This document shows, piece by piece, positions 4,593-16,525 of a stretch of 64,000 nt of DNA. Each line of letters opens with the position of its first letter. Within the stretch, counting starts at the first letter, position 1. Below the pieces are notes generated by a model. The model did no database searches. It worked only from the letters and a program-made list of their open reading frames with translations, and was not told where the DNA came from. Made by a program: the position numbers and the translations under genes. The stretch is from Escherichia coli (GTDB lineage Bacteria; Pseudomonadota; Gammaproteobacteria; Enterobacterales; Enterobacteriaceae), in assembly GCF_003790525.1 (NCBI RefSeq), contig NZ_CP033635.1; one strand, 5' to 3'.

Positions 4593-4653
4593 AGGGTGAA
4601 TATGGCTACGAGATAAGTTTCGTGGCTATTTTTCTCTGGAACTTAAACGACGA

Positions 4654-4686
4654 AAGCCCGAATCAGTAATGATTCGGGCTTTCTGA
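4654..4686. terminator. Hairpin aagcccgaatc-agtaat-gattcgggctt between yafV 3' end and aspV 3' end
   Basis: 11-bp inverted repeat with flanking T-rich sequence on both strands; lies downstream of both convergent genes. Confidence 0.5.
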
Positions 4687-4690
4687 ATAT

Positions 4691-4767
4691 TGGCGGAACG
4701 GACGGGACTCGAACCCGCGACCCCCTGCGTGACAGGCAGGTATTCTAACCGACTGAACTACCGCTCC
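4691..4767 (-). tRNA. aspV: tRNA-Asp (GUC)
   Basis: Reverse complement reads GGAGCGGTAGTTCAGTCGGTTAGAATACCTGCCTGTCACGCAGGGGGTCGCGGGTTCGAGTCCCGTCCGTTCCGCCA, including CCA end. Confidence 0.97.
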
Positions 4768-4899: not shown

Positions 4900-5631
4900 T
4901 TATGCCCGCCAGAGGCAGCTTCCGCCTTTCTTCTGCACCAGATCGAGACGGGCTTCATGTGCCGCAAGCTCTTCATCTGTCGCAAAAACAACGCGTAACT
5001 TACTTGCCTGACGCACAATGCGCTGAATTGTTGCTTCACCTTGTTGCTGTTGTGTCTCTCCTTCCATCGCAAAAGCCATCGACGTTTGACCACCGGTCAT
5101 CGCCAGATAAACTTCCGCAAGGATCTGGGCATCGAGTAATGCCCCGTGCAGCGTTCGTTTACTGTTATCTATTTCGTAGCGGGCACATAACGCATCGAGG
5201 CTGTTGCGCTTACCGGGAAACATTTTCCTCGCCACCGCAAGGCTATCGGTGACCTTACAGAAGGTATTGGTCTTCGGAATATCGCGCTTAAGCAACGAAA
5301 ACTCGTAGTCCATAAAGCCGATATCGAACGCTGCGTTATGGATCACGAGCTCCGCGCCGCGGATATAGTCCATGAACTCATCGGCAACCTCGGCAAACGT
5401 GGGCTTATCGAGCAAAAACTCATCGGCAATACCATGTACGCCAAAGGCTTCCGGATCCACCAGCCGATCGGGTTTGAGATAAACATGGAAGTTATTGCCC
5501 GTCAGGCGACGGTTCACCACTTCAACGGCACCAATCTCAATGATCTTGTGGCCTTCATAGTGCGCACCAATCTGATTCATACCGGTAGTTTCGGTATCGA
5601 GAACGATCTGGCGTGTAATTGCAGTGCTCAT
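4900..5631 (-). CDS. dnaQ: DNA polymerase III epsilon subunit (3'-5' proofreading exonuclease), 243 aa
   Basis: ORF 4900..5640; trimmed to [20 protein letters not shown]... the recognised DnaQ N-terminus. Confidence 0.93.
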
Positions 5632-5695
5632 AGCGGTCATTTATGTCAGACTTGTCGTTTTACAGTTCGATTCAATTACAGGAAGTCTACCAGAG

Positions 5696-6163
5696 ATGCT
5701 TAAACAGGTAGAAATTTTCACCGACGGTTCGTGTCTGGGTAATCCAGGACCGGGGGGATACGGTGCTATTTTACGCTATCGCGGACGCGAGAAAACCTTT
5801 AGCGCAGGCTACACCCGCACCACCAACAACCGTATGGAGTTGATGGCCGCTATTGTCGCGCTGGAGGCGTTAAAAGAACATTGCGAAGTTATTTTGAGTA
5901 CCGACAGCCAGTATGTCCGCCAGGGTATCACCCAGTGGATCCATAACTGGAAAAAACGTGGCTGGAAAACAGCAGACAAAAAACCAGTAAAAAATGTCGA
6001 TCTCTGGCAACGTCTTGATGCTGCGCTGGGGCAGCATCAAATCAAATGGGAATGGGTTAAAGGCCATGCCGGTCATCCAGAAAACGAACGTTGCGATGAA
6101 CTGGCTCGTGCCGCAGCGATGAATCCCACACTGGAAGATACGGGCTATCAAGTCGAAGTTTAA
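5696..6163 (+). CDS. rnhA: Ribonuclease HI, 155 aa
   Basis: ORF 5624..6163; trimmed to [26 protein letters not shown]...; divergent from dnaQ with a 64-bp spacer. Confidence 0.93.
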
Positions 6164-12911: not shown

Positions 12912-12988
12912 TGGCGGAACGGACGGGACTCGAACCCGCGACCCCCTGCGTGACAGGCAGGTATTCTAACCGACTGAACTACCGCTCC
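12912..12988 (-). tRNA. aspU: tRNA-Asp (GUC), distal tRNA of rrnH operon
   Basis: Same tRNA-Asp sequence as at 4691-4767, located immediately downstream of the 5S rRNA. Confidence 0.97.
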
Positions 12989-13040
12989 ACCGAATTCTTT
13001 TACAACCACCGGTTTTATGACCGGCTTACTGCTTAATTTG

Positions 13041-13160
13041 ATGCCTGGCAGTTCCCTACTCTCGCATGGGGAGACCCCACACTACCATCGGCGCTACGGC
13101 GTTTCACTTCTGAGTTCGGCATGGGGTCAGGTGGGACCACCGCGCTAAGGCCGCCAGGCA
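13041..13160 (-). rRNA. rrfH: 5S ribosomal RNA
   Basis: Reverse complement matches E. coli 5S rRNA (TGCCTGGCGGCC...GGGAACTGCCAGGCAT), 120 nt. Confidence 0.95.
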
Positions 13161-13252
13161 AATTCTGTTTCATCAGACCGCTTCTGCGTTCTGATTTAAT
13201 CTGTATCAGGCTGAAAATCTTCTCTCTTCCGCCAAAACATCTTCGGCGTTGT

Positions 13253-16156
<2,904 letters not shown>

Positions 16157-16330
16157 TCACAACCCGAAGATGTTTCACTTCAGAGTTGCGAAAATTTGAG
16201 AGACTCACGAACAACTTTCATTGTTCAGTGTTTCAATTTTCAGCTTGATCCAGATTTTTAAAGAGCAAAACTTCGCAGTGAACCTTTGCAGGTACACTCT
16301 GAAGTATTTTTTATTTAATCACTACAGAGA

Positions 16331-16406
16331 TGGTGGAGCTATGCGGGATCGAACCGCAGACCTCCTGCGTGCAAAGCAGGCGCTCTCCCAGCTGAGCTAT
16401 AGCCCC
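16331..16406 (-). tRNA. alaV: tRNA-Ala (UGC), 16S-23S spacer
   Basis: Reverse complement GGGGCTATAGCTCAGCTGGGAGAGCGCCTGCTTTGCACGCAGGAGGTCTGCGGTTCGATCCCGCATAGCTCCACCA. Confidence 0.97.
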
Positions 16407-16448
16407 ATAACATGTAGTTAAAACCTCTTCAAATTTGCGATGCAAATT

Positions 16449-16525
<77 letters not shown>

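Follow-up and report, generated by a model that had tools for sequence, protein, structure and literature searches.

The closest described counterpart of the locus studied here is the dnaQ-rnh(A) region of Escherichia coli K-12. The title of Maki, Horiuchi and Sekiguchi (1983, PNAS 80:7137; PMC390008) speaks of an "overlap of the promoter regions", and that of Nomura, Aiba and Ishihama (1985, JBC 260:7122) of "convergent overlapping dnaQ-rnh genes"; the overlap of the dnaQ and rnhA promoters has been known since those two papers. A promoter list places dnaQP1 at 235934 and dnaQP2 at 236017 of the K-12 genome. Overlapping 5′ ends were found by Conway et al. (2014) in 136 of 388 divergent E. coli operons, with a mean overlap of 168 nt. 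With respect to gene order, An et al. (2009) reported the arrangement gloB-kerV(yafS)-rnhA-dnaQ in 51% of 197 genomes, in the Proteobacteria, and described kerV, rnhA and dnaQ of Pseudomonas aeruginosa as co-directional. Because the Pseudomonas genes are co-directional, the divergent, promoter-sharing layout is lineage-specific rather than universal; in the present analysis it was confirmed within the Enterobacteriaceae.

The window analysed here is a 64,000-nucleotide stretch of an E. coli genome (RefSeq assembly GCF_003790525.1, contig NZ_CP033635.1) in which the gloB-yafS-rnhA-dnaQ neighbourhood is present. A preliminary description of this DNA had placed the start codons of dnaQ and rnhA 64 bp apart on opposite strands, and had proposed that their promoters overlap back to back within that spacer and that the two genes are subject to coupled, antagonistic regulation.

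The dnaQ-rnhA junction and its start codons

The ATG of dnaQ occupies positions 5631-5629 on the minus strand and that of rnhA positions 5696-5698 on the plus strand, which leaves a gap of 64 bp (Table 1). The RefSeq annotation of E. coli SMS-3-5, whose sequence is identical, gives the same two coding sequences and the same gap, and in K-12 MG1655 rnhA (235535-236002) and dnaQ (236067-236798) are likewise separated by 64 bp. A 701-bp query spanning the junction matched E. coli SMS-3-5 and other strains at 100% identity. Of 5426 complete E. coli genomes, 5424 yielded a single match, the genes being annotated in every case as dnaQ and rnhA; with a 151-bp query centred on the spacer, at an identity of at least 95%, the count was again 5424. 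The spacing, the identity of the two genes and their divergent orientation were therefore given correctly in the preliminary description. Orthologues of dnaQ and rnhA flank the spacer on opposite strands, head to head. The junction is a conserved gene junction and no chance pattern, and the locus is very probably the E. coli dnaQ-rnhA intergenic control region, with interleaved sigma-70 promoters that point towards one another.

The window strain is SMS-3-5-like and differs from K-12 by 35 substitutions across dnaQ and rnhA, none of them in a promoter hexamer. Since its alignment with K-12 contains no indels and positions 5588-5724 are identical, start sites mapped in K-12 transfer exactly to the window (K-12 position x corresponds to window position 241698 - x). 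The spacer is compact and, as had been observed earlier, A/T-rich around its centre, with an A+T content of 59% overall and 70% at 5656-5678, compared with 48.5% for the whole window.

Start codons that would enlarge the spacer were looked for on both sides and none was found. The sole alternative in-frame ATG of dnaQ lies at 5640 (5640-5638) and is directly preceded by an in-frame TAA (5643-5641), which excludes a larger spacer on this side; initiation at ATG 5640 would shrink the gap to 55 bp. Initiation of rnhA at the in-frame GTG 5624 was rejected as well. The segment from this GTG to the rnhA ATG differs in length by 1, 2 or 12 bp among species (spacers of 62, 63, 64, 65 and 66 bp) and, because lengths differing by non-multiples of 3 break the frame, it is noncoding; the protein N-termini in the PDB also argue against the GTG, the RNase HI chains (1rch/2rn2 and others) beginning MLKQ and being 155 aa long and 100% identical. 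The epsilon chains 5fku_D and 1j53_A begin MSTAITRQ and comprise 243 aa.

The canonical dnaQ start at ATG 5631 is favoured over ATG 5640, since the codons between the two ATGs vary freely and the upstream ATG is missing in Siccibacter turicensis (locus L081), where ACG replaces it. The first of these two codons is ACC, ACT, GCC, AGC or AAC and the second GCT, GAT, GTT, GTG, GAC or GCG, so that they change non-synonymously among species in the manner of noncoding DNA. A metagenome-assembled genome of Pluralibacter (L077) has ATT at the canonical dnaQ ATG and keeps the upstream in-frame ATG, which may be an assembly error or a sign of upstream-ATG use. Anti-Shine-Dalgarno complementarity is absent at both dnaQ ATGs (+0.7 and -0.2 kcal/mol, versus -4.4 kcal/mol for rnhA). 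The rnhA Shine-Dalgarno sequence overlaps the -10 element of the opposite-strand dnaQ promoter P2 by 2 bp (5684-5685), and the stretch from this sequence to the rnhA ATG (5679-5698) is identical in 74 of 78 loci.

Several neighbouring features were recorded. At its 3′ end rnhA overlaps the convergent gene yafS tail to tail by 4 bp (6160-6163), and ExcludonFinder gives yafS-rnhA as a convergent excludon of MG1655. Downstream of dnaQ, at a distance of 132 nt, there is a tRNA-Asp gene (4691-4767, minus strand), which is 98 nt from yafV (4593-4767 region); a separate Cappable-seq start at K-12 236910 (window 4788) is located just upstream of the tRNA gene. In K-12, yafV (239419-240189) lies more than 2.6 kb beyond the dnaQ end at 236798, with yafU/ykfM between; because yafV is only 98 nt from the tRNA-Asp gene here, the window strain is without the K-12 insert beside that gene. 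An rRNA operon at 12912-16525 (minus strand), with tRNA-Ile and tRNA-Ala genes in the 16S-23S spacer and a second tRNA-Asp gene after the 5S gene, is ordinary.

Transcription starts and promoters on the two strands

Starts in the dnaQ direction were taken from three independent genome-wide data sets, those of Kim et al. (2012) and Cho et al. (2014) and a Cappable-seq set. The major start, P2, corresponds to K-12 236021 and was supported by 122 reads in Kim et al. (2012), by 203 reads with assignment to sigma-70 in Cho et al. (2014), and by a Cappable-seq score of 405, which makes it dominant in that set. It lies 19 nt from the rnhA ATG and yields a leader of 46 nt, a length also given by Kim et al. 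(2012), who found it shared by Klebsiella pneumoniae with near-identical upstream sequence. An additional sigma-70 start at K-12 236027 (35 reads) was listed by Cho et al. (2014), and Cappable-seq contributed starts at K-12 235991 (score 24, window 5707), at 235937 (score 21, window 5761, P1) and, very weakly, at 236046 (score 5, window 5652). The supplements of Mendoza-Vargas (2009) and SMRT-Cappable-seq contained no dnaQ or rnhA entry. The listed positions of P1 and P2 (235934 and 236017) agree with the mapped starts at 235937 and 236021, so that the two known dnaQ promoters overlapping rnhA are both present here with matching -10 elements.

The -10 element of P2 is situated between the rnhA Shine-Dalgarno sequence and the rnhA ATG, and the ATG itself falls within the -35/-10 spacer of the promoter, whose -35 hexamer is poor. 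P2 has the composition of an extended -10 promoter: A(-11) and T(-7) are kept, TGGTAGACT is followed by TCCTGT and A(+1), and the start was assigned to sigma-70 by Cho et al. (2014). The start of P1 lies 65 nt inside rnhA, and the promoters of both weaker starts, 5707 and 5761, are contained wholly within the rnhA coding sequence.

A hand-coded weight-matrix scan that admits extended -10 promoters, and that was run before the minor sites were seen, predicted dnaQ starts at 5761, 5707 and 5677 exactly. P1 was the best match of the region, in the top 0.06% of the window, and TGGTAGACT scored in the top 0.4%. A simple consensus promoter scan of 5400-5950 returned 0 sites and misses all four mapped dnaQ-direction starts; it is too strict here, and its zero does not mean that promoters are absent. 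Promoter prediction on both strands, suggested earlier as a check, recovered the dnaQ starts with the weight matrix, and for rnhA gave spacer candidates with weak scores (top 2%).

Table 1. Features of the dnaQ-rnhA junction in window coordinates; rnhA promoter elements are candidates.
Feature	Position	Strand	Details
dnaQ coding sequence (DNA polymerase III epsilon, 243 aa)	4900-5631	minus	RefSeq annotation, identical SMS-3-5 record
rnhA-direction start	5581 (K-12 236117)	plus	Cho et al. (2014), 20 reads, sigma-70
Candidate rnhA promoter	5619-5652	plus	-35 TTGCAG at 5619-5624 (dnaQ codons 3-5) with one of two -10 elements
dnaQ-rnhA start-codon spacer (64 bp)	5632-5695	none	ORF list, RefSeq, K-12
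Inverted repeat, left arm	5638-5653	none	12/16 complementary to 5683-5698; holds upstream ATG 5640-5638 and TAA
Candidate rnhA -10 TATGTC	5642-5647	plus	17 bp from TTGCAG; predicted start ~5654
Candidate rnhA extended -10 TGTCAGACT	5644-5652	plus	mirrors P2; predicted start ~5659
Variable A/T-rich centre	5654-5678	none	1-2 bp indels, 12-bp deletion in some genera; per-column conservation 0.3-0.9
Major dnaQ start (P2)	5677 (K-12 236021)	minus	Kim et al. (2012), Cho et al. (2014), Cappable-seq
rnhA Shine-Dalgarno AGGAAG	5680-5685	plus	anti-Shine-Dalgarno duplex -4.4 kcal/mol
Inverted repeat, right arm	5683-5698	none	holds P2 -10 and rnhA ATG
dnaQ P2 extended -10 TGGTAGACT	5684-5692	minus	TG at -15/-14, hexamer TAGACT; 7 nt upstream of mapped start
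rnhA coding sequence (RNase HI, 155 aa)	5696-6163	plus	RefSeq annotation, identical SMS-3-5 record
P2 -35-position hexamer TCTACC	5707-5712	minus	inside rnhA codons 4-6; 17 bp to TAGACT
Minor dnaQ-direction promoter, -10 GAAAAT	5714-5719	minus	start 5707 (K-12 235991), 12 nt inside rnhA
dnaQ P1	5761-5795	minus	-35 TTTTCT 5790-5795, -10 TAAAAT 5768-5773; start 5761 (K-12 235937)

In the rnhA direction, the start must lie to the left of 5680, because the mRNA has to carry its Shine-Dalgarno sequence, and this position in turn puts the -10 and -35 elements into the half of the spacer nearer to dnaQ and into codons 2-5 of that gene. From these considerations a weak rnhA promoter would straddle the dnaQ start codon, with its -35 in dnaQ codons 3-5, its -10 within 5642-5652 and its start at approximately 5654-5659; rnhA may also, or instead, be transcribed from the weak start at 5581 inside dnaQ. 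The latter, with a leader of 115 nt and a position inside dnaQ codon 17, was the only rnhA-direction start retrieved, the Cappable-seq rows examined being those of the K-12 plus strand (the dnaQ direction). It is preceded by a weak match, TTGTGG-16-CAATCT, which is the same in the window and K-12. Across species this -10 varies (CGATCT in 41 loci, CAATCT in 25), and CAATCT is not its commonest form. An "rnhA TSS" at K-12 236672 in Kim et al. (2012), with 2 reads and a 670-nt leader, was discarded as a mis-assignment.

Because the dnaQ promoters extend over the start of rnhA, and a promoter of rnhA would have to extend over that of dnaQ, the two sets of promoters are very probably interleaved and face to face, their transcripts overlapping at the 5′ ends, and are not back to back. 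The earlier proposal of overlapping promoters holds in so far as the promoters share DNA; its back-to-back geometry does not, the dnaQ starts at 5677, 5707 and 5761 lying on the rnhA side. Much of the control DNA falls outside 5632-5695, and as judged from sequence the real control region probably extends over about 5617-5722, together with dnaQ P1 near 5761-5795. For genome scans, the lesson is that back-to-back promoters should not be assumed from a short divergent gap; at this locus functional DNA continues beyond the spacer for approximately 15 bp on the dnaQ side and for 25-100 bp on the rnhA side.

Conserved flanks and competing readings

Conservation was assessed with one genome per species, which gave 80 Enterobacteriaceae loci, 78 of them with enough flanking sequence to be analysed. 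The head-to-head arrangement of rnhA and dnaQ is kept in all 78. The spacer ranges from 52 to 66 bp: in most loci it measures 64 bp, in others 62-66 bp, and in Kosakonia, Trabulsiella, Yokenella and Siccibacter 52-53 bp. In the 78-species alignment two invariant flanks, 5638-5653 and 5679-5722, enclose a variable centre that carries the indels; the A/T-rich centre singled out in the preliminary description is the least conserved part of the region. A deletion of 12 bp (11 bp in L079) at approximately 5660-5673 was seen in loci L047, L048, L050, L059, L062, L064, L068, L076 and L079-L081, which belong to the four genera just named and some further Enterobacteriaceae, with both invariant flanks intact. 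Because deletions in the centre leave both flanks intact, the distance between the two -10 modules is not fixed.

Within the flanks, TGGTAGACT, TCTACC and TGTCAGACT occur in 78/78 loci, TCTACC being invariant although it spans synonymous sites, and GAAAAT, TATGTC and TTGCAG occur in 77, 76 and 62 of the 78, respectively. The P1 -10 is found in several forms (TAAAAT, CATAAT, TAAGAT, TAGAAT and others), in all of which position 2 is A and position 6 is T. Codons 4-9 of rnhA and 2-5 of dnaQ show hardly any synonymous change, a constraint that relaxes abruptly afterwards; elsewhere in dnaQ and rnhA all 64 four-fold sites at which the amino acid is fixed show variation, and the mean frequency of the top base is 0.61. 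The invariance of the first codons and leaders could in part reflect a translation-initiation constraint, which is inseparable here from promoter constraint. A further stretch of reduced synonymous change was observed at 5578-5598, across dnaQ codons 12-18 (GAT ACC GAA ACC ACC GGT ATG), where the constraint could be rnhA leader or promoter-proximal sequence, or codon preference at the Exo I motif.

The two flanks also contain an imperfect inverted repeat whose arms are nearly invariant across species; it is statistically ordinary, being equalled or beaten in 27 of 300 shuffles (9%). The same sequence, AAGTCTnnCAnAnATG, precedes the rnhA ATG and the upstream dnaQ ATG 5640, and its opposite strands give TGGTAGACT and TGTCAGACT. 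A perfect 8-nt inverted repeat, TGTAATTG at 5614-5621 and CAATTACA at 5673-5680, is probably due to chance, since the right-hand copy falls within the variable centre and other species do not conserve it. Six candidate leaders and hairpins gave folds no more stable than those of shuffled sequences (z of -0.9 to +1.25), and the only Rfam match was the tRNA downstream of dnaQ, with nothing at the control region. RNA structure was accordingly rejected as the main explanation.

Several other accounts of the conserved DNA were weighed against interleaved, facing promoters. The most substantial, which we regard as possible and somewhat doubtful, is that the spacer contains no rnhA promoter and that transcription of rnhA begins within dnaQ, at 5581, the block 5638-5653 being kept for another purpose such as dnaQ translation initiation. 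It would fit with 5581 being the only rnhA start retrieved (Cho et al., 2014), with the reduced synonymous change just downstream of it, where GGT is kept in 79/79 sequences, and with the lack of anti-Shine-Dalgarno complementarity at either dnaQ ATG, through which an unusual leader sequence could matter. Set against this, the start at 5581 has only 20 reads and a poor and variable -10, TGTCAGACT is a mirror image, in register, of the proven P2 element, and the published titles of Maki (1983) and Nomura (1985) refer to overlapping promoters. Much less can be said for two promoters lying back to back inside the 64 bp, an arrangement in which the -35 elements would meet at the A/T-rich centre and transcription would start outward near each gene. 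The short spacer, its A/T-rich centre and the very weak dnaQ-direction start at 5652 (Cappable-seq score 5) point that way; the major start 5677 and the others at 5707 and 5761 are all on the rnhA side, however, conservation is lowest in the centre, where a 12-bp deletion is tolerated, and the conserved DNA consists of the two flanks and sequence inside the coding regions, all of which makes this geometry extremely improbable.

Three further interpretations were considered. That the flanks are kept mainly as RNA-level signals, as leader structure or as antisense pairing processed by RNase III, rather than as promoter DNA, is unlikely: the mapped starts make the 5′ transcript overlap real, such overlaps occur in about one in three divergent E. 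coli operons (Conway et al., 2014), and the arms could pair in transcripts that hold both, yet 0 of 6 leader folds exceeded the stability of shuffled controls, Rfam gave no match, the P2 element stands at the exact -10 distance from a mapped start, and the invariance of the arms leaves no covariation to test. A single transcription factor binding both arms and co-regulating the two genes would account for their invariance across 78 species; it is nevertheless very unlikely, given that an equal repeat arises in 9% of shuffles, that 45 bp separate the centres of the arms, a long distance for a simple dimer, that 5560-5780 contains no LexA or DnaA box, and that neither arm needs an explanation beyond its promoter or ribosome-site function. 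We also consider improbable the more elaborate idea that the flanks are functional mirror images, each start codon lying within the -10 module of the other gene in a symmetric mutual-exclusion switch, with DnaQ made partly as a 246-aa form from ATG 5640. Interleaved promoters that face each other remain the preferred reading.

Predicted interference between the genes and comparison with known systems

RNA polymerase at a promoter has a footprint of approximately -55 to +20. By this measure a polymerase at P2 would cover 5732-5657 and one at a spacer rnhA promoter approximately 5600-5678, so that simultaneous binding would be impossible, and polymerases arriving from the two sides would meet head-on. 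Each dnaQ transcript would be complementary to the beginning of the rnhA mRNA; this antisense overlap would measure approximately 20 nt with P2 and exceed 100 nt with P1. Since the yafS overlap lies at the 3′ end of rnhA and the dnaQ transcripts at its 5′ end, opposing transcription overlaps rnhA at both ends. Because P2 appears to be the stronger promoter, by some ten to twenty times, expression of dnaQ would be expected to dampen that of rnhA, and control of the two genes would be reciprocal rather than co-ordinate. Interference, occlusion and antisense effects are predicted in this way from the geometry of the locus.

Antagonistic regulation of dnaQ versus rnhA is therefore plausible, and this part of the preliminary description is reasonable on the geometry, with indirect support from two sources. 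SOS induction is cited as lowering rnhA. In addition, a stationary-phase microarray contrast of ΔrpoS with wild type, a single experiment with three replicates, showed dnaQ falling approximately 2-fold (9.8/9.4/9.4 in wild type, 8.6/8.8/7.9 in ΔrpoS) and rnhA rising approximately 2-fold (7.3/6.7/7.3 to 8.5/8.8/7.6), with borderline significance for rnhA. Searches of 5560-5780 allowing up to one mismatch detected neither a LexA box (CTGT-N8-ACAG) nor a DnaA box (TTWTNCACA); given the lack of a LexA box, the fall of rnhA on SOS induction is not explained by a canonical LexA site in this interval. The region sets the relative amounts of the proofreading subunit of the replicase and of RNase HI, which acts in R-loop and primer removal, and so bears on mutation rate and on replication-transcription conflict; E. 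coli and related bacteria carry it in their core genome.

Among known systems, the locus resembles the divergent excludons in having complementary 5′ ends, the dnaQ starts 5707 and 5761 lying inside the rnhA coding sequence and 5677 upstream of the rnhA Shine-Dalgarno sequence, and in the reciprocal expression expected from them. It differs in extent, since the main dnaQ/rnhA overlap is approximately 20 nt, against a mean of 168 nt. Among the matches listed in the ExcludonFinder table dnaQ-rnhA is not named as a divergent excludon, and only yafS-rnhA appears, as a convergent one. In its sequence P2 appears to be of the extended -10 (TGn) sigma-70 type, which it resembles in the TG at -15/-14, the hexamer TAGACT, the poor -35 and the start 7 nt downstream; extended -10 promoters are a class of promoter, not a regulatory system. 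The nearest system is the dnaQ-rnh(A) region of E. coli K-12 itself, with which this junction shares the locus, the genes, the 64-bp gap, the positions of P1 and P2 and, base for base and without any difference, the spacer.
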